Positions 5,296 through 39,088 of a DNA stretch of 39,088 nucleotides are shown in pieces. A program made the position numbers and the translations under genes. Each line of letters starts with the position of its first letter. Positions within the stretch are counted from its first letter, which is position 1. Source of the DNA: Candidatus Zixiibacteriota bacterium (GTDB lineage Bacteria; Zixibacteria; MSB-5A5; GN15; FEB-12); the NCBI GenBank assembly GCA_022562075.1, contig JADFPZ010000002.1, positions 1-39,088 of the forward strand, written 5' to 3'. The notes under the pieces were generated by a model, which made no database searches, was not told the origin of the DNA, and was given only the letters and a program-made list of their open reading frames with translations.

Positions 5296-5553
5296 ATGCC
5301 TTTTTCTGTGCTGGATCCCGAAGATTTGCTCGAAAACGGCGTTTTCAAAGAAGCGGCTTTCCTTGAAAAAGCGGATAATTTTGACTGGCTGCAGTTTGAA
5401 AACAAGCAGGTTTTGGTCCGTGGCTGCAGTTCTGCTCTGATTCCCCCCTGGGCATTTATGTTGATAACCGGAAAATTGGCACATTTGGCCAAAAATGTCC
5501 GCTTCGGAAATGAGCATGATAATCTGGTTGTGTTCAGGAAGAAAAAGGATTAG
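5296..5553 (+). CDS. small conserved hypothetical, DUF2480-like (tentative)
   Basis: 85 aa, starting 3 nt after the iscA stop. The pattern L.E.G.F.E..F...... DW..F....V.V.GC...IPPWAFMLI resembles my memory of the Bacteroidetes DUF2480 family found next to Fe-S genes. It is much shorter than that family. Not verified. Confidence 0.45.
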   Translation: MPFSVLDPEDLLENGVFKEAAFLEKADNFDWLQFENKQVLVRGCSSALIPPWAFMLITGKLAHLAKNVRFGNEHDNLVVFRKKKD

Positions 5554-5591
5554 AATTGTCTTCTCAAAATTTGTAGAACCGAAGGATATGG

Positions 5592-5918
5592 ATGAGTTTG
5601 ATGCCTAAGATAAAGTTTTTGCCTTCTGATGTTGAAGTTGAGGTCGAAGAAGGAACGCCCATTTTGGACGCAGCCTTAGATAATGATATTCATATAGACC
5701 ATAATTGCGGCGGCAACTGCGCCTGCTCCACCTGCCACATAATTGTGATAGAGGGATTTGATACTCTTAATGAAATGACTGAAGACGAGCAGGATATGCT
5801 GGATGAAGCCGAGGGCCTGACCGAGACCTCACGTCTGGCCTGCCAGTGCGAAACCAGAGCTAATCTGATTGTAAAAATCCCTCCCAAAGAGTCAGACTGG
5901 GAAAATGACCCCTTTTAG
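5592..5918 (+). CDS. fdx: [2Fe-2S] ferredoxin, ISC/adrenodoxin type
   Basis: 108 aa. It has the Cys pattern C-x5-C-x2-C (CGGNCACSTCH) plus a distal LACQC. A GAAGGA Shine-Dalgarno lies upstream. Confidence 0.85.
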   Translation: MSLMPKIKFLPSDVEVEVEEGTPILDAALDNDIHIDHNCGGNCACSTCHIIVIEGFDTLNEMTEDEQDMLDEAEGLTETSRLACQCETRANLIVKIPPKESDWENDPF

Positions 5919-5941
5919 GTATTATATCAGCTAAATTGTTC

Positions 5942-5972
5942 AAAACCGCCTTTTTTTGAGGCGGTTTTTTTG
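5942..5972 (+). terminator. rho-independent terminator ending the iscA-fdx operon
   Basis: AAAACCGCC (5942-5950) pairs with GGCGGTTTT (5960-5968) and is followed by a T run. It starts 24 nt after the fdx stop. Confidence 0.8.
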
Positions 5973-5985
5973 TGAGCGTAAATTG

Positions 5986-6013
5986 TTGACTCTTTTCCCC
6001 TTATAGATAAAAT
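5986..6013 (+). promoter_or_regulatory. candidate sigma-70 promoter for the pseudopilin array (TTGACT-16 nt-TAAAAT)
   Basis: TTGACT at 5986-5991 and TAAAAT at 6008-6013. It sits between the terminator and the first pseudopilin gene. Motif match only. Confidence 0.35.
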
Positions 6014-6069
6014 CCACCATGCCCAAAAAGTAAATTTGGGCTGCAAAACAGCCGATAATATAAAGATAG

Positions 6070-7326
6070 ATGACGAAACGCTTGGAGTGCATGCAATTGC
6101 ATATTTCAAATTGGAAAAAAGGATATTCTTTGATTGAACTGATGGTTGTCATTATCATCATTTCGATTATCGCAGCCGTGTCTGTAAAAACTTTAGTAAC
6201 TTCAAGCAATACCGTCCGCACTGAACGCTCTAAAGATGAAATGGACGAACTGGCCTTTGCCGTAGCCGGTAACCCTGATTTGGTTTCAGGCGGAACAAGA
6301 ACAGATTTCGGATACGTCGGCGATGTCGGATCTATGCCGGCCAATCTCGATGCGCTGGTAATAAACCCGGGCGGATTCGCCACCTGGAACGGGCCATATT
6401 TGAAAGACGATTACCTGGCTGCATCAGGCGGCGCTAATTCTGAATTCAAAGTCGATGATTGGGGTTCCGGATATATCTACTCATCCGGGGTAACCATAAC
6501 TTCGACCGGCAGCGGACAGACTATCACCAGAAAAATCGCAAACTCTGTAAGCGACTTACTTTACAACAGGGTGGCTGTTACCGTAACAGACATAAACCAG
6601 AACCCTCCCGGACCAATCTACAAAGACTCTATAAATGTTCTTCTGACTTATCCTAACGGTACTGGCGGAACGGTCACCATAGCCCGGGCACCTGCCTCAG
6701 ATGGTTTTGTTCAGATTGATTCTGTCCCGATAGGGCTTCAAACTTTAAGAACAGTTTATCTGCCTGACAATGATACCCTGAGGCGAAAAGTTGCAGTTAA
6801 CCCGGGAGAACTGGCCTTAGTCGATGTTCAGCTCTTTAGTAACCCCTGGGGTTCTGGAGGCGGTGCTGGTTCCGGCACCGTCATAATCAGACCCGACGGA
6901 GTTGGAGATTATACCCAGCATACCAGCAACGGCTGCAGCAGTAATTGGCAATGCGTCAACGATGTCACCTCAGACGGCGATGGCTCCTATGTAATAATAG
7001 GTTCAGGTCCCTGGGCACAGGATGCTTATCAGGCAGAAGACCCGATTGGCAGCGGTGCCATCGATAGTATTGTTATTTATATTTTAGTACGCTCTACCGG
7101 TCCGGGACAATTAGCACGAACGGTGCTGATAGTTAACGGTAATCTTTATACCGGCGGTAATGTTAACTTAAACGCCTATACGACTTACACCGTTTTTTCA
7201 ACCGCCTATGCCACAAACCCGGACACATCCTCTCCCTGGACCTGGGCTGAACTAAACGATATTCAAATTGGAGTCGGCTTAAAAGATCAGGCCAGATGCA
7301 CTCAGGTTTGGGCGGAAATTTTTTAA
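6070..7326 (+). CDS. large pseudopilin-like protein, paralog 1 of 4: prepilin N-methylation signal + GspG-like core + beta-sandwich + Gly linker + unknown C-terminal module
   Basis: 418 aa. The class III signal is KKG|YSLIELMVVIIIISIIAAV. A conserved block follows: TDFGYVGDVGSMPANLDALVINPGGFATWNGPYL ... DDWGSGYIYSSG ... STGSG. The true start may be the ATG at 6091 (MQLHISNWKKG). Confidence 0.85.
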   Translation: MTKRLECMQLHISNWKKGYSLIELMVVIIIISIIAAVSVKTLVTSSNTVRTERSKDEMDELAFAVAGNPDLVSGGTRTDFGYVGDVGSMPANLDALVINPGGFATWNGPYLKDDYLAASGGANSEFKVDDWGSGYIYSSGVTITSTGSGQTITRKIANSVSDLLYNRVAVTVTDINQNPPGPIYKDSINVLLTYPNGTGGTVTIARAPASDGFVQIDSVPIGLQTLRTVYLPDNDTLRRKVAVNPGELALVDVQLFSNPWGSGGGAGSGTVIIRPDGVGDYTQHTSNGCSSNWQCVNDVTSDGDGSYVIIGSGPWAQDAYQAEDPIGSGAIDSIVIYILVRSTGPGQLARTVLIVNGNLYTGGNVNLNAYTTYTVFSTAYATNPDTSSPWTWAELNDIQIGVGLKDQARCTQVWAEIF

Positions 7327-7343
7327 TACAGGTTAAGTAATTA

Positions 7344-8603
7344 ATGAAGAAATTCAGTTTCAATAATCAAGCCGGTTTTTCTCTTATTGAGTTAACTATT
7401 GCGCTGATAATCATCTCAATTCTGATAGGCGTGGCCTTGCAGCAGATGACCTCGGTCATGGACGACAGCCGCCAGATCAAAACAGAGCGCGAAATGGAAA
7501 TACTGGCAAATTCCATTGTAGGAAACCCCGACCTGACCGGTAACAGCGGCAGAACAGATTTTGGCTATGTCGGAGATGTCGGCAGTTTCCCGCCCAATAT
7601 CAGCGCACTATACACCAACCCCGGCGGCTATGCCAGCTGGGACGGACCGTATATACCTGTTGGTTTTGTGCAGGATTCAACGGGTTTAAAAACGGATGAA
7701 TGGGGAGCAGCCTATAATTATTCCGGCGGAGTTACAATATTATCTACCGGAAGCGGCACGACAATAACCAAACAGATAGCCAGAGCATCTTCAGATTACC
7801 TGCTTAATACTGTCTACGGAGATATCAAAGACAACTCCAACTTTCCACCCGGCAGCACCTATCAGGATTCTGTCGATATAGTAATAACAATTCCCAACGG
7901 AGCCGGCGGCTCGCAGACAAAACTTTACCATCCCGACTCGGTTGGTAATTTCACTCTCGATTCTCTGCCGGTGGGAAGGCACCCTTTGAGAATTATCTAC
8001 ACCCCGAATGTTGATACAATTTTTAGATACCTGACAGTCTATCCCCGCCACAAAGACATCAAATCATTTAGATTCTTTGGCAGCTACTTCTCTGGCGGCG
8101 GCGGTGGAGGCGGTGGTGGTGGCTGCGACTCCAGCGGCGTATTAATTTTGCGTCCGAACGGCAGCGGCTCAATTACAAGTTTGAGCACGGCCGGCTGCGG
8201 CAGTAACTGGCAGTGCGTAAGTGAAGTGACCTCAGATGAAGACGCTACCCGCCTGGAGAGAGCATCCAACTCTTATGCAACTGATGTTTACGCCATGGAA
8301 GATATTCCTTTCACCGACTGCGATATTTTACGGGTAACTGTTTCTTACAGGGCACGTAAAGAAAAAAATACAGGAGCGGCTATACCGGTTATCTATGTTG
8401 CAGGCGTGGAGTACCAGGGCACTGAATCTTCGCTTACAAATTCATATAGTAACTACAGCTACCAGTGGAATTCCAATCCCAACAGCGGCAGCGCCTGGAC
8501 CTGGTCGGACATTATAAATCTCGAAGCCGGTCTGGCTATTAAAGGTCAAAACGCAAGTTTCCCGGCTTACGTTACCCAAGTATGGCTGGAGATAGAGTAT
8601 TGA
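7344..8603 (+). CDS. large pseudopilin-like protein, paralog 2 of 4 (same architecture as paralog 1, with a Gly10 linker)
   Basis: 419 aa. The signal is QAG|FSLIELTIALIIISILIGV. It shares the block TDFGYVGDVGSFPPNISALYTNPGGYASWDGPYI ... DEWGAAYNYSGG ... STGSG. Its C-terminal module shares GCGSNWQCV and SAWTWSD with paralog 1. Confidence 0.87.
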   Translation: MKKFSFNNQAGFSLIELTIALIIISILIGVALQQMTSVMDDSRQIKTEREMEILANSIVGNPDLTGNSGRTDFGYVGDVGSFPPNISALYTNPGGYASWDGPYIPVGFVQDSTGLKTDEWGAAYNYSGGVTILSTGSGTTITKQIARASSDYLLNTVYGDIKDNSNFPPGSTYQDSVDIVITIPNGAGGSQTKLYHPDSVGNFTLDSLPVGRHPLRIIYTPNVDTIFRYLTVYPRHKDIKSFRFFGSYFSGGGGGGGGGGCDSSGVLILRPNGSGSITSLSTAGCGSNWQCVSEVTSDEDATRLERASNSYATDVYAMEDIPFTDCDILRVTVSYRARKEKNTGAAIPVIYVAGVEYQGTESSLTNSYSNYSYQWNSNPNSGSAWTWSDIINLEAGLAIKGQNASFPAYVTQVWLEIEY

Positions 8604-9361
8604 TGAGAAATAAAATGAATACAAGAGGCTTTACTCTCATCGAAATTGTTATCGTGCTGGTTATCTCAGCGATTTTGGCAACTATAGCTATGCGCTCTGC
8701 CTTTTTCATTTCGGAAACTGCCAAAGAAGAAGAGACCAAGCAGGAACTGGAAATGCTGCAGTTTGCCATTGTCGGCAATCCGCTTTTGTTTAACGACAAC
8801 ACCAGATCCGATTTCGGTTATGTCGGCGATGTTGGCTCTATGCCGCCCAATCTTGATGCTCTCTTTTCCAATCCGGGAGGCTACGCCACCTGGAACGGTC
8901 CCTATATCAAGAGACGCTTTGAGCAGGACCCTGATGACTATAAGAAAGATGCCTGGGGCGTTGTCTACACTTACGGCGGCAATAGCGTTACTTCAAGCGG
9001 TTCGGGTTCAAACATAGTCAGGGAGTTCGGAACCAGCTTAAACGATTTTCTAATTAACGGAGTTGATGGAGTTCTGCTTGATAAAGATGGCACTCCCCCG
9101 GGAACAGTATATCGCGACTCAATAACAGTCCGTCTGACTTTCCCCAACGGCAGCGGCGGCTACTCTTCGCTGCTGACACAGCCTGATATCGGCGGATTTT
9201 TCTCTTTTGAATCTGTTCCGATAGGCAACCACGATATTGAAATCGTCTACGGACCAACCAATGACACCTTAAAAAGATTCGTGTCGATAGTCCCCAGATC
9301 GAGGCACTACGGCGAATATTTTCTATCTCAAAATGTCTGGTATGACACAACCGGAAGTTAA
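8603..9361 (+). CDS. pseudopilin-like protein, paralog 3 of 4 (GspG-like core + beta-sandwich, no extra C-terminal module)
   Basis: The signal is TRG|FTLIEIVIVLVISAIL, with the block SDFGYVGDVGSMPPNLDALFSNPGGYATWNGPYI ... DAWGVVYTYGG ... SSGSG. I prefer the ATG at 8603, which forms a TGATG overlap with the paralog 2 stop. The track ORF starts at 8582. Confidence 0.85.
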   Translation: MRNKMNTRGFTLIEIVIVLVISAILATIAMRSAFFISETAKEEETKQELEMLQFAIVGNPLLFNDNTRSDFGYVGDVGSMPPNLDALFSNPGGYATWNGPYIKRRFEQDPDDYKKDAWGVVYTYGGNSVTSSGSGSNIVREFGTSLNDFLINGVDGVLLDKDGTPPGTVYRDSITVRLTFPNGSGGYSSLLTQPDIGGFFSFESVPIGNHDIEIVYGPTNDTLKRFVSIVPRSRHYGEYFLSQNVWYDTTGS

Positions 9362-9370
9362 AGAAACAAA

Positions 9371-10099
9371 ATGATGCAAAAACTAAATTCAAGCTCCGGT
9401 TTTACTCTGATAGAGCTGGTCATAATTATCATCATCATTGCTATAATCACCGCAGTTGCTATGGTCAACATGACCTCATCTTTTGACACCGCCAGACATG
9501 AGCATACCAAAGCCGAGCTTGATGCCCTGGCCTTTGCTATAGTCGGCAATCCGGCGCTGTACACAAACGGCGCTCGTTCTGATTTTGGCTATGTCGGTGA
9601 TATTGGCAGCTTGCCGCCGGACTTAAGCGCCCTGGTCGCAAACCCGGGCGGTTTTGCCACCTGGGATGGTCCGTATATAGAAAGCGGAGCCGGTTACAAT
9701 CAGGATGGCTGGGGAATTAACTACTTGTACAGCGGAACATTGATTCGCTCGAGCGGCTCCGGCGGTAATATCGACAAAATGGTGGCAGCCAGTTCATTGT
9801 CACTGCTTGCAAATACTGTGACGGGCTACATCGTTGATGCCAGTTTAACTATGCCGGGCGCCGCATATAAAGATTCGCTGGCGCTTCGCCTGACATTCCC
9901 TGACGGAACCGGCGCCATGGCGACTGCTGTTACTATGGTTGACGCCAAGGGAAATTTTTCGTTTTCAGGAATCCCGATTGGAAATCATCGGCTGACCGCT
10001 GTATATCTACCGGATAATGATTCGACCACAATTTCTGTTTCAATTACGCCGGCTTCTGTTACAAAAATTGACATTGTCTTTCCCCATGACCTCTGGTAA
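9371..10099 (+). CDS. pseudopilin-like protein, paralog 4 of 4 (GspG-like core + beta-sandwich)
   Basis: 242 aa. The signal is SSG|FTLIELVIIIIIIAIITAV, with the block SDFGYVGDIGSLPPDLSALVANPGGFATWDGPYI ... DGWGINYLYSG ... SSGSGG. Confidence 0.87.
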   Translation: MMQKLNSSSGFTLIELVIIIIIIAIITAVAMVNMTSSFDTARHEHTKAELDALAFAIVGNPALYTNGARSDFGYVGDIGSLPPDLSALVANPGGFATWDGPYIESGAGYNQDGWGINYLYSGTLIRSSGSGGNIDKMVAASSLSLLANTVTGYIVDASLTMPGAAYKDSLALRLTFPDGTGAMATAVTMVDAKGNFSFSGIPIGNHRLTAVYLPDNDSTTISVSITPASVTKIDIVFPHDLW

Positions 10100-10127
10100 A
10101 ACTTTTTAGATTCTCTAAGTGAGAATA

Positions 10128-11267
10128 CTATTCTTCTATCGTAAGATTAAGCCCACGTTTTCTTAATTCTTTTATGAACACTTTTGAATCAACCACTAAC
10201 TCCTGCGGCTGGCAGCCACGTTTGTTGATTTTGCCGGAGGCCGCCATCCAGGCCACAATCGCCGCAGAAAACGAGGTTGAGCGCATCATGGCTGTCAGGC
10301 CGGTCTGTTCGTCCTGTCTGTCTATTAACTCATAGACGACTTTGTGATTACCAGCATTTCTTGTCCCTTCGGCAGTAAGCCGTACTAAGACCAAGTCCGG
10401 TTCACCAAAAGAAAGGTTCTTATCCAGCACCGTCTTAAAAAGCTCTCTGGGAATAATATTTTGGCCGTTAACATCGACTTCTTCTCTCGAAGCCAGCCCG
10501 ATTTCCAGCATTGTCTTAAAAACCATGCAATGACCGGGATAGCGAATCGTTTTGTAATCTAAGAAATCAATCTTGTTCAAATATGTATCCGGCAGAGTTG
10601 AAGTACCGCCCGAAGTATAAAAAGCTTCGAGTTTCCCGACCGACTCAAACTCAAGCTGTTCGATTCCGCTCATCGGCTCGACTATCTTTTTCTGGCCGTT
10701 TTCTAAAATAAGGCAGGGCTCCCAGTATTCGTTGATGAGACCCTCAGCTGAAAAAACCATCTGATAGTTTAATGGCGGCCTCGGATTTTGCGGAAGTCCG
10801 CCTACTCTGATTTTGACAGATTTTATCTGGTCAAATTTTGAAACGGCATCGGCGCACAAAACCGCCACCATGCCCGGCGCCAGGCCGCAGTCGGGAATAA
10901 TTATTACATCATTTTTTTCAGCTTCGTTATTCATGGCCAGCTGCTCGGCCACCGTATCATTGTTACCGCCCAAATCAACTAAGTGACATTTGGCGCTGAT
11001 GGCGGCCATTGTCAGACCTGGATTAAATTTGTAAGTCACACACGAGAGAGCAGCATCGTAATCTTTTAAGACTGAAGTTACCAGAGCGACATCACCGGCA
11101 TCGAGAGCAGCCGCTATTGCGATGTTATTGCCATATTTTTTAGCGACTTCGACCGCCAGCCTGGCATCTATATCAAAAACGCCGACAGCAGTGACACCTT
11201 CGGCACGGCACAAATCATAAACGGCCGCTTGTCCCATAAGTCCTGCCCCAATTACTGCAATTTTCAT
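10128..11267 (-). CDS. saccharopine dehydrogenase-like NAD(P)-dependent oxidoreductase
   Basis: 379 aa. It has an N-terminal Rossmann motif (MKIAVIGAGLMGQAAVYDL) and the length and pattern of the Sacchrp_dh family. The substrate is not assignable. Confidence 0.7.
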   Translation of the reverse strand: MKIAVIGAGLMGQAAVYDLCRAEGVTAVGVFDIDARLAVEVAKKYGNNIAIAAALDAGDVALVTSVLKDYDAALSCVTYKFNPGLTMAAISAKCHLVDLGGNNDTVAEQLAMNNEAEKNDVIIIPDCGLAPGMVAVLCADAVSKFDQIKSVKIRVGGLPQNPRPPLNYQMVFSAEGLINEYWEPCLILENGQKKIVEPMSGIEQLEFESVGKLEAFYTSGGTSTLPDTYLNKIDFLDYKTIRYPGHCMVFKTMLEIGLASREEVDVNGQNIIPRELFKTVLDKNLSFGEPDLVLVRLTAEGTRNAGNHKVVYELIDRQDEQTGLTAMMRSTSFSAAIVAWMAASGKINKRGCQPQELVVDSKVFIKELRKRGLNLTIEE

Positions 11268-11288: not shown

Positions 11289-13460
11289 TCAGATTAACTG
11301 AAATATTTTTCTCAAAAGCCATTCCAGAGAAAGCGCACTCAAAAACAATAGCAACAGCCAGAGTTTTCCCCACAATGTTATTTCGCCGGTTTCGGAGACT
11401 GCCACCGGCCGCAAATCCAGAGCCGAGATTGCTTCATCAAATTTGTCGAACCTATAGTACTTGCCGCCTGTCCTGGCGGCCATGGCTGTCATCTCGGTTA
11501 TGTTGCCGCTTAAATCAAACTCTTCGAGCGTGAAAGATTCAACCAGAATCTCTCCCGTTTCTTCTTGTATGATACGGCCGTCCTTTTCAAATCTGCCCGT
11601 CCAGCTGTAATTGCCGGATGACAGATTAAAAATCTCTGCTCTAAACTCACCTTCTTTATATGGAATCAGGTCTGAGAGAACCGTTTCTTGTCCCTGCTGC
11701 CCGCTCAGCTCAATATTACCCGAGACACCCGGCAGTGGTCTGAAACCAAGGTCAAAAGCAAATCCTTCGAACCTGACAGCCTCGCCTCTGCTGAAAACTT
11801 TTCTGACCGGACTAATTCGCAGCGGCTCCAGGTCTTCTTTGACGGTTAACCAGCTGGCAGTACCCTCGACAAATTTTTCAAAAAACTTTTCGCCCGATTC
11901 AAAACTGTAGCTGTCAAATTCCCAGGACCAGTACGGCAGGGCAGCGCTGACAAAAACACGTCCCGGCCCGTGACGCTTATAGCCCGTTACCGGCAGGCGC
12001 TTTGATGGTTGATTTGGATCGGCCGTTTCTGCCAGAATTATGCCGTCCGGGTCTAGTTCATCCATGACGACCAGAGATTTAAATGGTGGAATCTCAGACC
12101 AGGCCAGTCTTATCGAGGTCTGGTCATCGGCCAGTCGATTGGCCGGGTGCAGCAAACTGCCCTCGACAGGCTCGGCGTGAAACTCCCGGTATTGCAGATT
12201 TGATTTTGAACTCTGATAAAAGGGCATCAGCTGGTTAAACCAGTTGACAGGACCGCGCGCTGCAAACTGCTCACCTAATAAAAGCCAGAGCGAACCGCCG
12301 CGGTCGCTAAGATACGAAACAATAGCCTGCTGCGATTGCTGTAAACTGCGAGGGTCGGGGTCGTGTAGAATAATAAGGTCATACCGGTTTATTTCTGTCT
12401 GCTTAGTGGGGAAGTTCTGTTTTTGGCCGGGCGCTCTTTTGCCTGTTTGAAGCAGCTTTATTTCGTAGCGGTCTGAACTCTCAAAAAATCTTTTTATAAA
12501 GCCGACTTCGTAATCCGGTCTGGATGACACCAAAAGAACTGACATCTTACTTTTTAATACTTTGACCGCAAACGAACGGGAATTGTTCTGGCTGTTTCTC
12601 TCACCTTTAAGCTGGGGGATACTGACTTTAAGAATTTTATGACCGGGACTTACCGGAATATATTTGAGGCTAATCTCTGCCAGACCGCTTTCCTGAGATG
12701 CTTTGAAACTTGCCTCTTTTAAGACTTTGCTGGAATCAGACAGCCGTACAATTACTTTCTCAGGCAGTTCCCCCTGCCAGCTCATACTGACCTTTACCGA
12801 AGTGATTTGCCCGACAAACAGAACCGGATTAAATTCGATTTTTGTTATGGCAATGTCCGACTCGCTGCCGCCGGCTGCCATATCAATCGTAAACAAAGGG
12901 CCGGACAGATTCTCTGCCGCCGCCGTAGGTTCCCTTCCAAAATTCGAGCTGCCGTCTGTTAAGATAAAGCGATAGTCGACAGCTTCGGTCAGCTCCATTC
13001 TCTCTATGTCATAGAGTATATCACCTATGGCTGTCTTATCTCTGGAAATATCAGCAGCGTCGGCAGAGATGATATCAGCAAAATAATATTTTTCTAAAGA
13101 GGCCTCCGTCTGGAGTTTTTCAAATAGAGATAATGACAAAAGTGAGTCAACTCTGGCCCGACGGGTTTTTCCGTTTTCTTCTTTTTCCATACTATCTGAG
13201 CGGTCAATCAGAAAAGAAATACGCCGGGGACGCTCATAGCTGCGGCTGAAACTTATTACCGGCTCCAGCAGCGCCAGTATCAGCGTTAAGATAGCCAGAA
13301 GCCGCAGGCTGCCTAAGATAATCTTTAAATAACGGGGCAGCGGCGGATTGGTGCGGTAGTAAGTAAAAACAGCCAGAGCTGTCAAAACCAGCAGCATCAG
13401 CCAGACCGCTATCGGGCTTCCTGTCAGATAATTTATTGATAAGTCATCATAGCCGAACAT
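11289..13460 (-). CDS. large bitopic membrane protein, BatA/vWA-like N-terminus with a GATase1-like middle region (tentative) and a C-terminal TM anchor
   Basis: 723 aa. The N-terminal double-TM segment (PIAVWLMLLVLTALAVF ... LRLLAILTLILALLEP) is followed by ISFLIDRSDSM, a vWA MIDAS-like DxSxS. The middle contains YDLIILHDPDP...GGSLWLLLG. The C-terminal TM is LWLLLLFLSALSLEWLL. Confidence 0.6.
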   Translation of the reverse strand: MFGYDDLSINYLTGSPIAVWLMLLVLTALAVFTYYRTNPPLPRYLKIILGSLRLLAILTLILALLEPVISFSRSYERPRRISFLIDRSDSMEKEENGKTRRARVDSLLSLSLFEKLQTEASLEKYYFADIISADAADISRDKTAIGDILYDIERMELTEAVDYRFILTDGSSNFGREPTAAAENLSGPLFTIDMAAGGSESDIAITKIEFNPVLFVGQITSVKVSMSWQGELPEKVIVRLSDSSKVLKEASFKASQESGLAEISLKYIPVSPGHKILKVSIPQLKGERNSQNNSRSFAVKVLKSKMSVLLVSSRPDYEVGFIKRFFESSDRYEIKLLQTGKRAPGQKQNFPTKQTEINRYDLIILHDPDPRSLQQSQQAIVSYLSDRGGSLWLLLGEQFAARGPVNWFNQLMPFYQSSKSNLQYREFHAEPVEGSLLHPANRLADDQTSIRLAWSEIPPFKSLVVMDELDPDGIILAETADPNQPSKRLPVTGYKRHGPGRVFVSAALPYWSWEFDSYSFESGEKFFEKFVEGTASWLTVKEDLEPLRISPVRKVFSRGEAVRFEGFAFDLGFRPLPGVSGNIELSGQQGQETVLSDLIPYKEGEFRAEIFNLSSGNYSWTGRFEKDGRIIQEETGEILVESFTLEEFDLSGNITEMTAMAARTGGKYYRFDKFDEAISALDLRPVAVSETGEITLWGKLWLLLLFLSALSLEWLLRKIFQLI

Positions 13461-33137: not shown

Positions 33138-34074
33138 CGCCCGCAGATGCCCTGGCCGATTCTATTTTAAGAAGCGCCAATCTGTCTTTTATTTTTTCGA
33201 AAACGCTTTCATGGTAACCGCAGATATCTTGGGGGTCGGCAGACATAATCGCAATGGCAGCGTCTACTTCTTTTTGCCGGTTGCCGGAGTTAAGCTGCTC
33301 TGAAAGAATATCCATTGCTTCATCATTGCCGATTTTGCCAAGTACTTTCATGGCCAGTTTTGCTTTTAAGCCGCTGGCCGAATTAAGCGCTTCTTTTAAC
33401 TGTGCTAACAAGCGGGTAGTGTCCTTGGTAAGCAAGGCTTCGACCGCTGACAATCTGGCGCCGTAGTAAGAATCACCCAGCATCTGGACCAGATAAGAAA
33501 TTGTTTCAGCCGAATTCAGCTTACCGGCAGAAACTACTGCCGCTTTCCTCACCTGTCCGACCGAGTCATTAAACGAATTAATAACAGCTGCCACAGCCCG
33601 CAAATCTCCTATTTTCCCCAGCGCCCTGATGCTATATTCTCGAACCTGCCAATTGTCATGATTGGCCACACCAAGCAGCGACAGGACCGCAGCCGAATCA
33701 CTGATATCCCCCAGTGTCCAGCAGACTCGTTTTATAACCAGCCACTCAGGCCGGCTGAGAGCATCAATCAAATCAGGCAGAGCCGGAGAACCGATCTTCT
33801 TGAGAATCTTTATTATCGTCAAACGCTCTCTGGCAGACTTGGTAGTGAACTTATCAATCAGAGGCGGTACTGCCTTTGCTCCAAGTTTTGCCAGGGACTC
33901 TATAGCCGGGTCAACTTTGTCACGATATTTAAGCTCGCCTGATGAGGCAATCACAAATATTGAATCTATTCTTTTTTGAAGTTGCACGGGGGTTCTGTTT
34001 GATTCTGCAGCCGCTAAAGTAAGGGCCGCTACTAAGATAAAAGATATGACAGCTATGAAAATCTTAATTTTCAT
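33115..34074 (-). CDS. secreted HEAT-repeat (PBS-lyase HEAT-like) protein
   Basis: 319 aa with a signal peptide (MKIKIFIAVISFILVAALTLAAA). It has repeated ~30-aa units of the type AVPxLIxxLxDxxxxVRxxAxxALGKIGD. There is an ATGA overlap with the upstream gene and a 23-nt overlap with the downstream gene. Confidence 0.8.
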   Translation of the reverse strand: MKIKIFIAVISFILVAALTLAAAESNRTPVQLQKRIDSIFVIASSGELKYRDKVDPAIESLAKLGAKAVPPLIDKFTTKSARERLTIIKILKKIGSPALPDLIDALSRPEWLVIKRVCWTLGDISDSAAVLSLLGVANHDNWQVREYSIRALGKIGDLRAVAAVINSFNDSVGQVRKAAVVSAGKLNSAETISYLVQMLGDSYYGARLSAVEALLTKDTTRLLAQLKEALNSASGLKAKLAMKVLGKIGNDEAMDILSEQLNSGNRQKEVDAAIAIMSADPQDICGYHESVFEKIKDRLALLKIESARASAGDGTYSAN

Positions 34075-36011
34075 TTTTTGGTCTCATCTTCAGGGATAAG
34101 TTCAATATCCATGCCGCCGCCCCATTTTGATTTTGTCTGCCAGAAAAAGTCATCTCTGCCGTTGCCCAGATATTGATCGGAGCCTCCGAGGTCAATGAAA
34201 AGACCGATTGAGCCAAAATCTCTGCGGGGGTTGCCGTAACCCTGGCTGTTTTTTTCATTATGGATAAAATAGCGGTCTTCGCCTGAGTTATCTATCAGAA
34301 TCCCGACGCCGTTGGCTGAGCCGGCTGCCTGAGATAAATCATAGGCGGTATAAGTATCATTTCCGTTTCTGTCCAGCAAGATACCCGCGGAATAGTCATG
34401 GCCGCAGCCCTGCGAGACTCCTTTGGAAAAGTAAACGTCGTTGCCGCTGTCGTCGGTGAGAATACCCAGTGACATATGGGTGCCGGCTCCTTGTGCATAT
34501 TGAAAAGAATGATAGTTGTCATTGCCGGCTTTGTCAGAAATAAATCCGAGTGACCACCAGTAGCTGGAGCCCTGACCGAATATATCTGTATAATAGCTGT
34601 CGTTTCCTTCAAGGTCGATTATGCCGCCTATTCCCCCGGACATAACCGGTCTGAGGCCATAGCCGAACCCTTGAGACAGCGAAATATAATGGTCATCATA
34701 ACGCAAGATATCTTTGTACTTTCCTCCGGCGTAATATGAGTCTGAGCCTTTAGTGTCACAAATAAGACCGCAGCCTTCTATAAACCCGAACCCCTGAGCA
34801 AAGAGCGCCCCATTGTAAATATCCCTGCCTCCTTCATCTACCAAAAGCCCCAGTCCGAATGAGCCTGCCCCCTGTACATGGGTGTCGCCGTCATAACGGT
34901 CGTCTCCCGCAGCATCATATAGAATTCCGAACCCAAAATAACCTGAGCCAAGAGAAAACGATTTAGCGTCATATCTGTCGTCTCCCTCGAAATCGACCAG
35001 GATACCGACAGACAGACAGCCAGAGCCTAACGTAAAATCGCTGCGGGAGCGGTAACTGTCATTGCCGCTGAAATCAATAATGATTACTCCGTGAGGGTTG
35101 TCAGGGTCATATTCCAGGTCATAGATGTCATCCCCGCCAATATCTAATATGAAATAGTAATCGCCGTTGTAATAGTCGTTATCAGGACCACCTATGGCCC
35201 AGCCGGGCTGCCTGCCCAGGAAAGCACTAAGATCCGTATTATCCGGAAGAAACCCGGTTACTCTCATAAAATCTTCGGCGGCGTCTTCTCCTCCCCGCAG
35301 CTGCTTTCTTAATCTCTTGGTCTCAAGTAGTATCATTTTCAGGCAGTCTATACCTGCTCTGATAATGGGGTCTTTGTCTATTTTATGCGCGAATTCTACA
35401 AACTGGTCGGCATATCTCTCTTCTGCTTTCTCCAGTGAATCATGTTGCTCTATCGTATAAAACTCTTCTTCTAAATCGCTTGTTATTATTTCTTTGAATT
35501 TGGTTGTCAGAAATCTTTTTTGCTTCTTAGATAGCGGTGCCAGCATCATTTCAGTTGAACGGGGAAATACCTGGTCAATATATACAGCCATCCGGGCCAG
35601 AAACTGATTGAGGCTCTGATTCAGGAAATAGAGAGTATAGGCTTCCCCTGCCTCTGTCCCCTGCGGCCGGTAGGCCCTGCTGCGGGAGCTCTGGCCGGTC
35701 ACAGCCAGATCATCAAAGAGTATGGAGGCCAGAATCTCCGGCTGGCCTTTGATATGAACGCCTTTTAGCTCGTCGACATAGCCAATCATATCCAGGGGCT
35801 GACTCATAAGTGCCGCAACTTTGCTCAGGCGAAAACCGTCCGGGTCGTGATAGTCCTGGCGAAAAGAGATATCTTTTGGATGCAGGCCTAAATAGTCGGT
35901 TAATAGAAGCAGCCCCTGCTTTTCCGGTGACATTTTCTTATTATTCTGAGCTGATGCACTCAAGGCTAACGAAAGTATGAGGCACATACAATAAACAGAT
36001 TTCACTGACAT
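34071..36011 (-). CDS. secreted protein: ~280-aa helical N-domain + ~12 tandem ~26-aa GxDxY...QGxG repeats (predicted beta-solenoid)
   Basis: I prefer the ATG at 36011 (MSVKSVYCMCLILSLALSASA|Q, a signal peptide). The track ORF extends to a TTG at 36050. Example repeat units: VGILVDFEGDDRYDAKSFSLGSGYFG, FGILYDAAGDDRYDGDTHVQGAGSFG, LGILTDDSGNDVYFSKGVSQGCGHDYS and AGILLDRNGNDTYTAYDLSQAAGSANG. Confidence 0.8.
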   Translation of the reverse strand: MSVKSVYCMCLILSLALSASAQNNKKMSPEKQGLLLLTDYLGLHPKDISFRQDYHDPDGFRLSKVAALMSQPLDMIGYVDELKGVHIKGQPEILASILFDDLAVTGQSSRSRAYRPQGTEAGEAYTLYFLNQSLNQFLARMAVYIDQVFPRSTEMMLAPLSKKQKRFLTTKFKEIITSDLEEEFYTIEQHDSLEKAEERYADQFVEFAHKIDKDPIIRAGIDCLKMILLETKRLRKQLRGGEDAAEDFMRVTGFLPDNTDLSAFLGRQPGWAIGGPDNDYYNGDYYFILDIGGDDIYDLEYDPDNPHGVIIIDFSGNDSYRSRSDFTLGSGCLSVGILVDFEGDDRYDAKSFSLGSGYFGFGILYDAAGDDRYDGDTHVQGAGSFGLGLLVDEGGRDIYNGALFAQGFGFIEGCGLICDTKGSDSYYAGGKYKDILRYDDHYISLSQGFGYGLRPVMSGGIGGIIDLEGNDSYYTDIFGQGSSYWWSLGFISDKAGNDNYHSFQYAQGAGTHMSLGILTDDSGNDVYFSKGVSQGCGHDYSAGILLDRNGNDTYTAYDLSQAAGSANGVGILIDNSGEDRYFIHNEKNSQGYGNPRRDFGSIGLFIDLGGSDQYLGNGRDDFFWQTKSKWGGGMDIELIPEDETKK

Positions 36012-36087
36012 ATTAACATAAAGAAAAGATTTGAATTGAATCAAAAGCAACTAAAAGCGCTTTGCCAGGAGCAGCCCGAAAAAGGTA

Positions 36088-36186: not shown

Positions 36187-36624
36187 TTAGGTAGCAGTGA
36201 CGTCGTTGATAGTATTCAGCAAGGTACCGTCCTGGTCAATTGTCCAGGTGTCGATAGCAGGATCGTCATCCAGATCTGCAGTTGCGGTACAAAGAAAGGT
36301 GTTAAGAGCGGCAGCCATTGTATAGGTATAAGCATTACCGATCATGATTTCTACGCCAATCTCCGGGAAAAGACCTCCGCCAGGTGCCACGGTGACACCG
36401 GCATCACCATATCTGGCTGGTATGACTACGTTGCTCTGACGATAGGTGCGCTGCATTGTATAGACCTGTTTCAGAAGCTGTTTGGCTTCTGACTGCTTGG
36501 AACGAGTAGTAGCCTGCATGAATCTCGGAATGGCCAGAGCAGCCAAAATACCGATAATCACGACTACGATCATCAACTCGATAAGGGTGAAACCCTTCTG
36601 ATGATTGTGGAATTTTGTGAACAT
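36187..36624 (-). CDS. pilA: type IV (T4a-like) major pilin, paralog 2
   Basis: 145 aa. It has the prepilin signal HQKG|FTLIELMIVVVIIGILAALAIPRF with Glu at +5, and the C-terminal block CTATADLDDDPAIDTWTIDQDGTLLNTINDVTAT. An AGGAGG Shine-Dalgarno lies upstream. Confidence 0.9.
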   Translation of the reverse strand: MFTKFHNHQKGFTLIELMIVVVIIGILAALAIPRFMQATTRSKQSEAKQLLKQVYTMQRTYRQSNVVIPARYGDAGVTVAPGGGLFPEIGVEIMIGNAYTYTMAAALNTFLCTATADLDDDPAIDTWTIDQDGTLLNTINDVTAT

Positions 36625-36693
36625 GTGGACCTCCTACAGTCTCTAAAATTAAGGGTGTCTGTTTCAATCAGTTTCCTTACTCTAACTGTATTG

Positions 36694-36708
36694 GCAAACG
36701 CTGTGCCA
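36694..36708 (-). promoter_or_regulatory. sigma-54 (-24/-12) promoter of pilA paralog 2
   Basis: The minus strand reads TGGCACAGCGTTTGC, i.e. TGGCAC-N5-TTGC with the canonical GG-to-GC spacing. It sits 70 nt upstream of the ATG, and a sigma-54 activator gene lies upstream in the same cluster. Confidence 0.8.
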
Positions 36709-36906
36709 AAACCTGCTGATATACTTGATTTCGGTGCCAACAGGGATAACTGTAGACAGAGCACGGAATTTTATCTGTTTTTTTTGATAAGTGTAGGAGT
36801 TGCCCTATTCTTTTGCGACCTCTTTGGGAAGAATCCCCCACGGCAATTTGCCAGAAACTTTGCATTTTGCAATTGCCCTGCCGCATGCACTTGCCTGTCA
36901 ATACCA

Positions 36907-36938
36907 TAAAAAAAAGCCCGCAGATGACCTGCGGGCTT
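36907..36938 (-). terminator. rho-independent terminator after pilA paralog 1
   Basis: A 9-bp stem AGCCCGCAG/CTGCGGGCT (36915-36923 and 36929-36937) is followed on the minus strand by TTTTTTTT. It starts about 20 nt after the stop. Confidence 0.8.
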
Positions 36939-36957
36939 CCGTCTAATGCCATAAAAT

Positions 36958-37383
36958 TTATGTCGCGGTTACGTCGTTGATAGTATTAAGCAGAGCGCCG
37001 GTCTGGTCAATTGTCCAGGTGTCTATGGCGACGTCATCATCGATATTGGCAGTAGCGGTACAGATAAACGTATTAGGGGTTGCCGCAATTGTGTAGACAT
37101 AACGGGCATTGGGCATAATTTCAATCCATATTGCACTAAATGCCAAAGGAGTAGCTGCAGAAGCTGGTCCTCCGGGGATATAATAGGTATTAAGCTGATT
37201 TGACTGCCTGTAAGTGCGTTGATTCACGTAGATTTGCTTCAGAATGAACTTCACTTCACTCTGCTTGGTCTTGGTTGTACTTTGCATAAACCTTGGTATA
37301 GCCAGGGCAGCCAGAATCCCGATAATCACAACGACTATCATCAATTCTATTAACGTAAAACCCCGATGGTCAGAACCTGCCAT
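36958..37383 (-). CDS. pilA: type IV (T4a-like) major pilin, paralog 1
   Basis: 141 aa. It has the prepilin signal DHRG|FTLIELMIVVVIIGILAALAIPRF and the C-terminal block CTATANIDDDVAIDTWTIDQTGALLNTINDVTAT. A GAAGGAG Shine-Dalgarno lies upstream. Confidence 0.9.
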   Translation of the reverse strand: MAGSDHRGFTLIELMIVVVIIGILAALAIPRFMQSTTKTKQSEVKFILKQIYVNQRTYRQSNQLNTYYIPGGPASAATPLAFSAIWIEIMPNARYVYTIAATPNTFICTATANIDDDVAIDTWTIDQTGALLNTINDVTAT

Positions 37384-37435
37384 CTTTTATTTCTCCTTCA
37401 TATTCAATCATCATACTTCTATGCGTCTTTTTAGC

Positions 37436-37452
37436 TGCAACTATCATTCCCA
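37436..37452 (-). promoter_or_regulatory. candidate sigma-54 promoter of pilA paralog 1 (weaker -24 element)
   Basis: The minus strand reads TGGGAATGATAGTTGCA. The GG and GC have correct 12-nt register and the -12 TTGCA is perfect, but the -24 is GGGAAT instead of TGGCAC. It lies about 53 nt upstream of the ATG. Confidence 0.45.
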
Positions 37453-37481
37453 AATGCTGTTAAAAAAAATCGATCAACTGT

Positions 37482-38876
37482 TCAGTTTTTGCCCATTTTT
37501 TTTGGAGTCTTAATTTTTCCGCTGTCATTCAGGTCATATCGCTCTAATTTACGGTAAAGAGTAGAGGTATCTATCCCCAGAATCCTGGCTGCTTTTGACT
37601 TTTTGCCGCCGGTCTGGCTCATGACATAATGGATATAGGCTTTTTCGATAGATTCCAAAGTCGGGTTGACCGGATCCTCTGCTGTGACCACCGACCGAGG
37701 TTCGACTGCCGTCAGTTTTTCCGGGAAATCTTCCGGCAGCAGCTCGCTGCCTTTGCTTAAGAGAACCGCCCGCTCGATTGTATTTTCCAGCTCTCTTACA
37801 TTTCCGGGCCAGCTGTAATTGGTAAGGGCAGCCATTGCACTTTCGGAGATGTCTTTTGGCTCAAGGTTAATCTTACTGTAAAATTTGTTAATGAAATGTA
37901 CAACCAGAAGTTTGATATCTTCTTTGCGCTCCCTCAAAGGGGGAATATGCAGCGGTATTACATTTAAGCGGTAGAATAGATCTGCACGGAACCGCCCCTG
38001 CTTTACTTCTTCTTCAAGGTCGGCGTTGGTGGCGGCAATCAACCGAATATCAAGTTCCAATTCTTTGGTACCTCCAACAGGTGTCAATTTCTTCTCTTCT
38101 ATTACCCGCAGGAGTTTTGCCTGAAAAGCCATCGAAGTATTACCGACCTCGTCAAGCAAGAAAGTGCCTCCTTCAGCTGTGCTAAAGAGCCCTTCTTTAT
38201 CTTTAATGGCGCCTGTAAAAGCTCCTTTTTTGTAACCAAAAAGTTCCGACTCTAACAGGTTTTCAGGAATGGCAGCACAATTTATCGAAACAAACGGACC
38301 GTTTCTGCGAGGGGAATGATGGTGAATAGCCCGGGCTATTACTTCTTTACCGGTGCCAGACTCTCCTCTGAGAAGAACAGTCGAGTCTGAGTCGGCTATT
38401 CTGCTGGCCAGTTTCTTCAAGTTTACTATTGTAGCCGATGTCCCCAAAAACTTGTCAAATGAATTTCCCTCTTGCAACTGCTGTTTCAGAGAGATGTTTT
38501 CCTGCTGGAGTTTCCTGCGGCTGAGAGATTTTTCGATAGCCAGTTTGATTTCATCGACTTTGAACGGTTTCGTAATATAATCGACGGCGCCTCTTTTCAT
38601 GGCTTCTATAGCCGTATCCACCGAGGCATAGGCGGTCATGACAATCAGGTCCTGGTCTTTCTTGAACTTCTTAACTTCTTCTAGAACTTCTAAGCCGTCC
38701 ATCTCAGGCATATTCAGGTCTGCGATGACCAGGTCATAGTCGTTTTGTTTTATCTGGCTGATAGCTGCCAGTGGAGAGTTCACAGTCTCCACGGAGTAGC
38801 CCTCTTTTGAGAGCATAATCTGCATAAAATCGCACATAGATTCTTCGTCGTCTATTACTAAAATTTTGGCTGTCAT
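37482..38876 (-). CDS. pilR: sigma-54-dependent response regulator (NtrC/PilR type)
   Basis: It has a receiver domain (ILVIDDE ... DLVIADLNMPEMDG). The AAA+ sigma-54 activation domain has Walker A GESGTGKE and the GAFTGA loop. A C-terminal Fis-type HTH is present (SKAARILGIDTSTLYRKLERY). I prefer the ATG at 38876; the track ORF starts at 38900. Confidence 0.9.
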   Translation of the reverse strand: MTAKILVIDDEESMCDFMQIMLSKEGYSVETVNSPLAAISQIKQNDYDLVIADLNMPEMDGLEVLEEVKKFKKDQDLIVMTAYASVDTAIEAMKRGAVDYITKPFKVDEIKLAIEKSLSRRKLQQENISLKQQLQEGNSFDKFLGTSATIVNLKKLASRIADSDSTVLLRGESGTGKEVIARAIHHHSPRRNGPFVSINCAAIPENLLESELFGYKKGAFTGAIKDKEGLFSTAEGGTFLLDEVGNTSMAFQAKLLRVIEEKKLTPVGGTKELELDIRLIAATNADLEEEVKQGRFRADLFYRLNVIPLHIPPLRERKEDIKLLVVHFINKFYSKINLEPKDISESAMAALTNYSWPGNVRELENTIERAVLLSKGSELLPEDFPEKLTAVEPRSVVTAEDPVNPTLESIEKAYIHYVMSQTGGKKSKAARILGIDTSTLYRKLERYDLNDSGKIKTPKKMGKN

Positions 38877-39088
38877 TTTTTTCGCCTTCGCTTTTTGCAA
38901 GACTTCCCGGTTTCAGGCTTATCATTCTAAGTTTCGGCAGGTTACAGGCTTTATCAACAAGCGAAAGCAAGGTTGCTCACAGATTAAACAGTACTTTGAC
39001 AGCTCTTTGGGGCAGCTTATATTGGCTTTCAAATTAGAGAGGATGACGATAAGTTAATGGCCAATTATTCACCAAGAGAACGGATTGA

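Follow-up and report, generated by a model that had tools for sequence, protein, structure and literature searches.

The contig JADFPZ010000002.1 of a Candidatus Zixiibacteriota bacterium (assembly GCA_022562075.1), whose 39,088 nt we refer to below as the window, carries between positions 6070 and 10099 of its forward strand an array of four tightly packed genes, which the original prediction had described as an orphan tandem array of paralogous, oversized GspG-like pseudopilins with C-terminal display domains. The open reading frame (ORF) list agrees with that description on the number, direction, sizes and spacing of the genes. A putative slot 1 modular pilin gene (6070–7326, 418 aa; an alternative ATG at 6091 would leave an 11-aa leader) is followed by a putative slot 2 modular pilin gene (7344–8603, 419 aa), a slot 3 pilin gene (8603–9361; 252 aa from the ATG at 8603, or 259 aa if read from 8582, where the ORF opens) and a slot 4 pilin gene of minimal architecture (9371–10099, 242 aa). 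The intergenic gaps are 17, –1 and 9 nt, the slot 3 start overlapping the slot 2 stop by 1 nt.

Over their shared first ~240 aa the four proteins are 41–45% identical, and the motif block listed by the original prediction was recovered from their alignment as invariant residues (G|F/Y..LIE, RxDFGYVGDxGS.P, NPGG, W.GPY, DxWG..Y.Y and S.GSG). The slot 1 protein runs from a class III signal (G18|Y19SLIE) through the first helix (α1), a GspG-type head, a transthyretin-like sandwich and a Gly-rich linker to a jelly-roll module. The slot 2 protein has the same order, with the signal G11|F12SLIE, α1 at residues 14–59, the GspG-type head, the sandwich at 155–243, a poly-Gly linker at ~250–262 and the jelly-roll at 264–419. 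The slot 3 protein of the window consists of the core architecture only, in a slot that usually bears an add-on (48/52 arrays). The slot 4 protein comprises the signal G10|F11TLIE, α1 at 13–58, the head at 59–147, the sandwich at 148–236 and a conserved C-terminus, FPHDLW in the window and FPADLW in most orthologs.

Predicted prepilins with a divergent GspG-type head

All four proteins are, as predicted from their N-termini, prepilin-type proteins. Pfam N_methyl scores above its cut-off in each of them (24.5–32.1 bits vs 21.2; 28.2 bits for slot 1), which upholds the class III signal that had been read in all four, and NCBIfam TIGR02532 is over its cut-off in proteins 1–3. The α1 spans given above for proteins 2 and 4 are those of a long N-terminal helix of ~46 residues predicted by AlphaFold2 (AF2), with predicted local distance difference test (pLDDT) values of about 80–89. 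Glu5 is present in 204/208 family proteins and in 50–52 of 52 in every slot, and Gly14 in most of the 208. Residue 22 is R, K or Q (with others in some slot 4 proteins), Pro not being among the five commonest residues of any slot. Tyr at +1 is a signature of slot 1 (50/51 proteins), the other slots having Phe. Because Glu5 is kept in every slot, none of the four looks like a GspK/PilX-type cap.

The likeness of the head to GspG had been proposed by eye. For a head-only comparison with hhalign we deleted the leader and the entire α1 from both profiles, the GspG profile being built from ten real GspG proteins (E. coli K-12 and nine annotated plasmid gspG genes, 32–70% identity). The family head then matched GspG with 96.5% probability (E 8.5e-10, 42 columns), in the same register as the comparison by eye (DVGAlP..LdAL..NPGG..W.GPY...DaWG..Y.y against D.g.YPT.QGL.AL..P...W.g.Y...DPW...Y.y); each slot alone gave ~96%, and 30 column-shuffled controls gave ≤3.3%. 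Under the same head-only conditions, similarity to E. coli GspH/I/J/K, represented by single-sequence templates of limited power, was ≤0.4% probability, and so was similarity to the heads of the PilA proteins encoded in the window.

Pfam T2SSG gives 13–20.4 bits on the window proteins, just below its gathering cut-off (GA) of 21; it matches 46/63 family members (E≤0.01) at the same model positions, 31–77/91, and the consensus sequences of slot 3 (22.1 bits) and of all slots (22.7 bits) pass GA. Among the three Pfam searches that the original prediction had proposed, N_methyl thus gave a clear answer in all four proteins, and T2SSG and CarboxypepD_reg stayed below threshold on single proteins while matching in 46/63 and 48/63 members, respectively. 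Searched against PDB sequences, neither a single array protein nor the family profile matched more than the N-terminal helix of pilins, GspG 5wda being among the matches; full-length family hhalign against single E. coli GspG/H/I/J sequences, low-power tests, aligned α1 only; and Foldseek matches of the full models were dominated by the beta domains, the head not being reported. Judged by sequence, the array head is a divergent GspG-type head, and the array proteins are not GspG orthologs.

A head of GspG type, not of PilA or GspH/I/J/K type, would suit a reading in which the four are endopilus pseudopilins of a type II secretion system (T2SS), forming or priming a short periplasmic pseudopilus that pushes exoproteins through a secretin while the lectin-like modules recognise cargo or envelope glycans. 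The GspG model TIGR01710 does align over positions 1–102 of its 134 in proteins 3 and 4, and 'general secretion pathway protein G' is the name under which some sources list family members. Its scores of 22.7–38.7 bits, however, fall far under the equivalog cut-off of 88.85, and Pro22, conserved in GspG, is missing. No gspC/D/E/F/L/M/O gene was found in about 80 loci, whereas gspG normally lies inside a gsp operon. Subunits of 250–900 aa with tethered modules would moreover be hard to fit into a periplasmic pseudopilus, and glycoside hydrolases sorted by the type IX secretion system (T9SS), recognised by Por_Secre_tail domains, offer these genomes an alternative secretion route. We consider such an endopilus quite improbable.

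A shared sandwich and grafted jelly-roll modules

The ~90-aa module that follows the head in all four proteins has, as modelled and matched, a transthyretin/CarboxypepD_reg-like sandwich fold. The AF2 model of protein 4 (pLDDT 80.8) consists of the helix, a loop-rich head and a seven-strand sandwich over residues 148–236 (pLDDT 85–90), whose Foldseek matches are transthyretin-like, CnaB, PA1324 and carboxypeptidase-regulatory-like domains. Pfam CarboxypepD_reg reaches 24.4 bits against a cut-off of 32.3 in the window and matches 48/63 family members. The earlier assignment of a carboxypeptidase-regulatory-like beta module is thus borne out by model strands, fold matches and family matches together.

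In the AF2 model of protein 2 (pLDDT 84.7), a Gly-rich linker, GGGGGGGGGG, is disordered (pLDDT <50 at residues 253–260), and a C-terminal beta module is confidently predicted over residues 266–418, mostly above 90, which agrees with the extra ~150-aa module that had been noted in paralogs 1 and 2. The slot 2 module is encoded at 8133–8600 (+ strand) and has a conserved Cys pair, GC..NWQC; the slot 1 module (6868–7323, + strand) aligns with it and is of the same type by iterated hidden Markov model (HMM) search. As a single domain, the slot 2 jelly-roll finds by Foldseek a carbohydrate-binding module (CBM) of family CBM6 (5fui; TMt 0.65, rmsd 4.0), CBM4-2, CBM16 and Cry toxins, whose domain III is a jelly-roll. 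The flexible Gly linker in the protein 2 model, this CBM-like fold and Laminin_G_3 domains in orthologs all favour the view that the C-terminal modules are of a display type, as had been suggested.

No Pfam or NCBIfam model matches the jelly-roll module, which itself matches 4,514 representative clusters (50% identity, E≤1e-3). Tandem copies are frequent, a single protein having up to six of them, and proteins with the module reach 4,130 aa, large ones also carrying rhamnogalacturonan lyase, FG-GAP, PKD, CARDB or cohesin domains. With its ~155 aa it is a candidate for a new carbohydrate-binding domain family.

Four orthogroups in fixed order across the phylum

Homolog searches gave 794 matches for protein 4, nearly all of ~245 aa and the named ones mostly from Zixibacteria and GN15, and 616 matches for protein 2, mostly of ~415 aa and covered over their full length. 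Scanning species-representative genomes yielded 79 array loci (numbered with the prefix L below), most of them labelled Zixibacteria; many metagenome-assembled genomes labelled Ignavibacteriales have the same synteny. On long contigs and complete genomes the four-gene array lies between the same neighbours, with sizes of, for example, 249/477/381/243, 249/408/394/246 and 394/421/465/243 aa.

Exactly four genes are found in 52/54 arrays counted as fully covered, the exceptions being L042 with six and L011 with two, the latter on a 4-kb contig and probably counted as fully covered in error. For 208/208 proteins of the 52 arrays the best cross-genome match lies in the same slot, the slot 1 protein of the window being no exception, and median identity is 50–55% within a slot vs ~43% between slots. 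The genes abut or overlap. The upstream flank has Rrf2/Fe-S genes in 33/47 arrays and the downstream flank saccharopine dehydrogenase in 27/44, and the unit stays intact where the flanks differ. The synteny that the original prediction had proposed to look for in related genomes is therefore present, and the array consists of four ancient orthogroups kept in fixed order as a phylum-wide operon in Zixibacteria.

The suggestion that these genes encode alternative filament subunits did not fare as well: ancient, non-interchangeable orthogroups in fixed order are unlike recent paralogs and make it unlikely. Recent tandem duplication, or a set of alternative major pilins, was rejected because same-slot orthology is perfect across genomes. 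The one six-gene array, L042 4370–10738 (complete genome CP070674.1), in which three additional members of ~390 aa stand between slots 1 and 4, looks like a local expansion.

Terminal modules change between lineages

The add-on modules are swapped between lineages, among them jelly-rolls, concanavalin A (ConA)-like lectin domains (recognised as Pfam Laminin_G_3, with E down to 6e-59) and others. Across the 52 arrays, slot 1 has no add-on in 44, a jelly-roll in three, a third, unnamed module in four, an other or unclassified one in one and a ConA-like domain in none, so that add-ons are rare here (8/52). Slot 2 is bare in five, and bears a jelly-roll in 28, a ConA-like domain in 11, the third module in five and something other or unclassified in three; the ~415-aa jelly-roll architecture is its commonest form, and its modules reach ~670 aa. 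For slot 3 the corresponding counts are four without an add-on, one jelly-roll, eight ConA-like, 35 with the third module and four other or unclassified. Slot 4 never has an add-on and is always 242–246 aa long (52/52).

The commonest layout is short-long-long-short (38/52), slots 2 and 3 bearing at least one add-on each in most genomes; the long-long-short-short layout of the window is rare (3/52, including the close relatives L007 and L082). A rule of exactly two module-bearing subunits per array was tried and rejected, 41/52 arrays having two and 38 being expected from independent slot frequencies. The third module, ~130 aa long and the commonest slot 3 add-on (35/52; for example L001 9603–9995), matches no Pfam or NCBIfam model and is missing from slot 3 of the window.

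Canonical pilins at a separate locus

The nearest pilus genes, as the original prediction had said, are pilR and two pilA about 26 kb away (36187–38900). The 145-aa pilA (36187–36624, – strand) has, ~70 nt upstream and near pilR, a predicted sigma-54 promoter, TGGCACagcgtTTGC (36694–36708, – strand), the sole perfect TGGCAC-N5-TTGC match in the window. The 141-aa pilA (36958–37383, – strand) is followed by a hairpin with a T-run and preceded by a weaker GG-N10-GC element, and pilR, encoding a sigma-54 activator, occupies 37482–38900. Both PilA proteins read FTLIELMIVVVIIGILAALAIPRF, with E5, G14 and P22 (FTLIEL...G14...P22), which makes the pair candidate canonical major pilins. The 141-aa PilA, which served as the query, has orthologs of 70–90% identity across the phylum, above the conservation of the array proteins, and a PilR-PilA-PilA-650-aa protein-HEAT-RNase_H_2 locus is syntenic across the phylum (L004, L087, L089 and L090).

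Immediately downstream of both pilA, the window encodes a 659-aa protein (34071–36050, – strand) whose place there is conserved. It has by eye a signal-peptide-like hydrophobic N-terminus and many degenerate G-x-D-x-Y repeats (GNDSYY, GDDRYD, GRDIYNG), and matches no Pfam or NCBIfam model. It is a candidate for association with the pilus, and L085 encodes a homolog ~1.2 kb away from its pilin array.

Filament machinery was searched for with Pfam on the large ORFs of the window and with phmmer, using E. coli GspC/D/E/F/L/M/O, in the window and the array loci. Neither found an ATPase, platform protein, secretin or prepilin peptidase in the window, as had been claimed, and a search for pilus machinery past the edge of the window and in the neighbourhood of orthologous pilA loci met housekeeping genes only. 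The array is thus an 'orphan' in that no machinery gene is nearby, which by itself is nothing out of the ordinary: minor-pilin operons, fimU-pilVWXY1E for example, are located away from pilBCD and pilMNOPQ. On two Zixibacterial contigs (L089 19235–20432 and L090 18820–20453) we also observed large proteins with the Por_Secre_tail T9SS sorting domain, one with a faint match to glycoside hydrolase family GH43; a T9SS route for secreted glycoside hydrolases therefore exists in the phylum.

The PilA pair bears on whether the four array proteins might themselves be shaft subunits, co-polymerising or alternating as the main constituents of a separate type IV filament, which would be thick, heteropolymeric and covered over its whole length with sandwich and lectin domains. 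With Glu5 in all four, each could sit beneath another subunit, and the shared head and sandwich could perhaps pack equivalently. Heteropolymeric type IV pili are reported to exist (PMC10628169). Yet orthogroups that are ~43% identical, present in one copy each and kept in fixed order phylum-deep speak more for distinct positions than for equivalent packing. Pro22 is missing, slot 2 modules of up to ~670 aa would crowd a shaft, and there is a canonical, highly conserved pair of PilA proteins under a sigma-54/PilR control of its own. A decorated shaft therefore appears to us very improbable.

The lack of any machinery or major pilin gene in the operon, and of regulation shared with pilA, could instead point to a bindosome-like surface assembly without a long pilus, in which signal and α1 would anchor or oligomerise glycan-binding proteins that capture polysaccharide for uptake or for T9SS enzymes. 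Sulfolobus sugar-binding proteins with a class III signal provide the analogy, and the spacer domain in all four proteins and the two lectin-type modules of most arrays would suit it. On the other hand, conserved Glu5 and Gly14 and a GspG-type head are typical of subunits that polymerise, a secretin-type conduit would still be needed for passage through the outer membrane, and we know of no precedent in a diderm bacterium. We rate this assembly as distinctly unlikely.

Probable transcription unit and genomic setting

Upstream of the array, an intrinsic terminator follows the ferredoxin gene at ~5943–5972 (+ strand; hairpin AAAACCGCC-TTTTTTTG-AGGCGGTTTTTTT with a T-run), found by eye and not listed by the automatic scan, and sets the array apart from the upstream Fe-S gene cluster. 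A sigma-70-like promoter match (TTGACT-16-TAAAAT, 10/12, a consensus match only) lies at 5986–6013 (+ strand), 57 nt upstream of gene 1, and is the top such match within the scanned region 5500–10400. A search of the window found no sigma-54 promoter at the array. With a terminator on its 5' side and a sigma-70-like match before gene 1, the array looks like its own transcription unit.

The upstream neighbours are LytB, LipA, PdxT and PdxS and, after these, four genes named by position and by the Pfam labels of syntenic genes elsewhere: an Rrf2-type regulator, an IscA-type Fe-S protein, a DUF2480-type ORF and a Fer2-type ferredoxin. Downstream, on the opposite strand, lie saccharopine dehydrogenase, a 723-aa membrane protein, polyprenyl synthase, GuaA, NadB and a lipid A operon (LpxK, KdtA, LpxB, LpxA and LpxC-FabZ, by Pfam on large ORFs), from which we conclude that the host is diderm. 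Scans of the window found no tRNA and no Rfam family. The GC content of the array, 0.47–0.49, is the same as that of its surroundings; with the phylum-wide synteny, this led us to reject a horizontally acquired island.

The 723-aa protein (11289–13460, – strand) has N-terminal transmembrane segments and no Pfam match, with a faint MG2 match in one ortholog; its gene is kept two genes downstream of the array, on the opposite strand, in many Zixibacteria, with no link to the pilins established. In two genomes a gene for an NtrC/PilR-type sigma-54 activator lies within ~5 kb upstream of the array (L023 5110–6483 and L039 549–1979). In L023 it is directly upstream on the same strand, which hints at lineage-specific regulation; by the array of the window it is absent.

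Discussion

We lean, with modest confidence, towards the view that the four genes form one operon for phylum-specific modular minor pilins, through which a type IV filament would display glycan-binding modules. That the subunits are minor ones and not major ones is suggested because no slot has Pro22, the proteins are bulky, and a separate, canonical and conserved PilA is under sigma-54/PilR control. A stoichiometric complex rather than a set of interchangeable subunits is suggested because four genes are found in 52/54 arrays, 208/208 proteins match best in the same slot, the genes abut and the unit stays intact where the flanks differ. Display of glycan modules is suggested by the disordered linker, the CBM6/CBM4/CBM16-like jelly-roll, the occurrence of the same module in extracellular polysaccharide-active proteins and Laminin_G_3 in orthologs.

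Let us suppose, then, that a prepilin peptidase encoded elsewhere cleaves the array proteins after Gly-1 and that they are then pulled out of the inner membrane by the machine of a type IV filament. In roughly 1:1:1:1 amounts they might form a hetero-oligomeric sub-assembly that occupies the filament tip or a position close to it, while the shaft would, most simply, consist of the canonical PilA encoded 26 kb away. The transthyretin-like sandwich might act as a spacer, the lectin-like modules would thereby be presented to polysaccharide or glycan-coated surfaces, and lineages would retune specificity through swaps of the terminal module. In this scenario we infer processing, filament incorporation, position in the filament and glycan binding of the array proteins.

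Several points weigh against this scenario. Glu5 in all slots argues against a self-capping complex. Neither the window nor the 10-kb surroundings of the array in about 80 genomes yielded a prepilin peptidase, assembly ATPase, platform protein or secretin. We found no regulatory link between the array and pilA, the former having a sigma-70-like promoter and the latter a sigma-54 promoter. Two module-bearing subunits occur in 41/52 arrays, close to what independent slots would give. Only the first ~50 of 86 head columns align with GspG, the C-terminal half with the Ca-site region not doing so. Glycan binding, finally, is suggested by resemblance of fold and domain family only.

The array proteins combine an N-terminal N_methyl/IPR012902 pilin module with extra domains that are not specific to type IV filaments, attached through a short flexible linker, which is the make-up of modular pilins. 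More than 1,200 such pilins in 264 architectures have been catalogued from InterPro, with many more unrecognised since their modules lack signatures (PMC8179133, PMC9934059). In the type IV pili of S. sanguinis, PilB, with a von Willebrand factor A (vWA) module, and PilC, with a lectin module of the ConA-like type, make up an adhesive complex at the tip together with PilA (PMC8179133, PMC9934059). Like PilB and PilC, the Zixibacterial proteins begin with a class III signal and have their module joined to a small pilin part by a short, flexible linker, and the ConA-like superfamily of PilC recurs in Zixibacterial slots 2 and 3. There are typically two module-bearing subunits per set in both, the S. 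sanguinis set being proposed to be tip-located and adhesive (PMC8179133, PMC9934059). Unlike the S. sanguinis set, however, the Zixibacterial one belongs to a diderm and consists of four mutual paralogs, each with a GspG-type head and a transthyretin-like spacer; it includes no Glu5-less partner of GspI type, is not located at a pil locus, and its window jelly-roll belongs to no curated family. The minor pilins CofB and TcpB of type IVb pili (PMC8179133) likewise join a pilin module through a linker to beta-repeat and beta-sandwich domains that bind ligand at the tip; they are, in contrast, single genes whose products form homotrimers, in dedicated type IVb operons, whereas here we have a hetero-set of four paralogs. 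A precedent for pilin-linked adhesion to cellulose comes from the type IV pilin FSU_2567 of Fibrobacter, of the same FCB superphylum (PMC6851124).

With GspG/PulG (PF08334, TIGR01710) the array proteins share the N-terminal signal, α1 and the first half of the head (Y.lD.g.YPT..QGL.AL ... W.G.Y ... DPWG..Y.Y). They differ in being 1.7–2.9 times larger (242–419 aa vs ~140–150 aa), with extra domains, in lacking Pro22, in a C-terminal sheet/Ca-site region that cannot be aligned, in scoring below the equivalog cut-off and in having no gsp neighbours. The GspH-I-J-K and FimU-PilV-W-X sets are alike in another respect: four prepilin genes in one tight operon apart from the machinery, conserved as a unit, with a bulky subunit or subunits expected at the filament end. 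GspH, I, J and K, however, have four different folds and K lacks Glu5, whereas the array four share one fold, all keep Glu5 and are paralogs of each other, with no similarity of their heads to E. coli GspH/I/J/K detected (≤0.4%). Perhaps Zixibacteria replaced the near-universal HIJK-type priming complex with an independently evolved four-paralog GspG-like complex, every member having its own transthyretin-like spacer, that both nucleates the filament and scaffolds swappable lectin modules; we regard this extension as unlikely, though worth stating. That the array proteins build a bacterial 'bindosome' rather than a pilus seems to us less likely than such a replacement.

A search for literature on pili or secretion in Zixibacteria found nothing usable. 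The original prediction described the array accurately, and its guess at a function is a reasonable conjecture. The impression that this is not a described system holds for the four-paralog cassette itself and not for the concept, modular pilins having been published (PMC8179133, PMC9934059). The array family is a previously unannotated one that fits the known modular-pilin concept, and what is new is the use of four paralogs of one GspG-like chassis, without a K-like cap, in a cassette that spans the phylum and whose modules are exchanged from lineage to lineage.

If our reading is correct, an uncultivated sediment and soil phylum would carry a compact, phylum-wide adhesin scaffold of four fixed pilin chassis onto which carbohydrate-binding modules have repeatedly been grafted, and the modular-pilin concept, so far one of single genes in pathogens, would come to include a conserved cassette of several genes. 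The array would offer a natural system for studying minor-pilin order in a filament when all members share one fold. It would also point to a widespread, uncurated jelly-roll domain (>4,500 representative clusters) that, as its modelled fold suggests, is probably glycan-binding, and it would provide a testable link between type IV filaments and the attachment of environmental bacteria to particulate polysaccharide.

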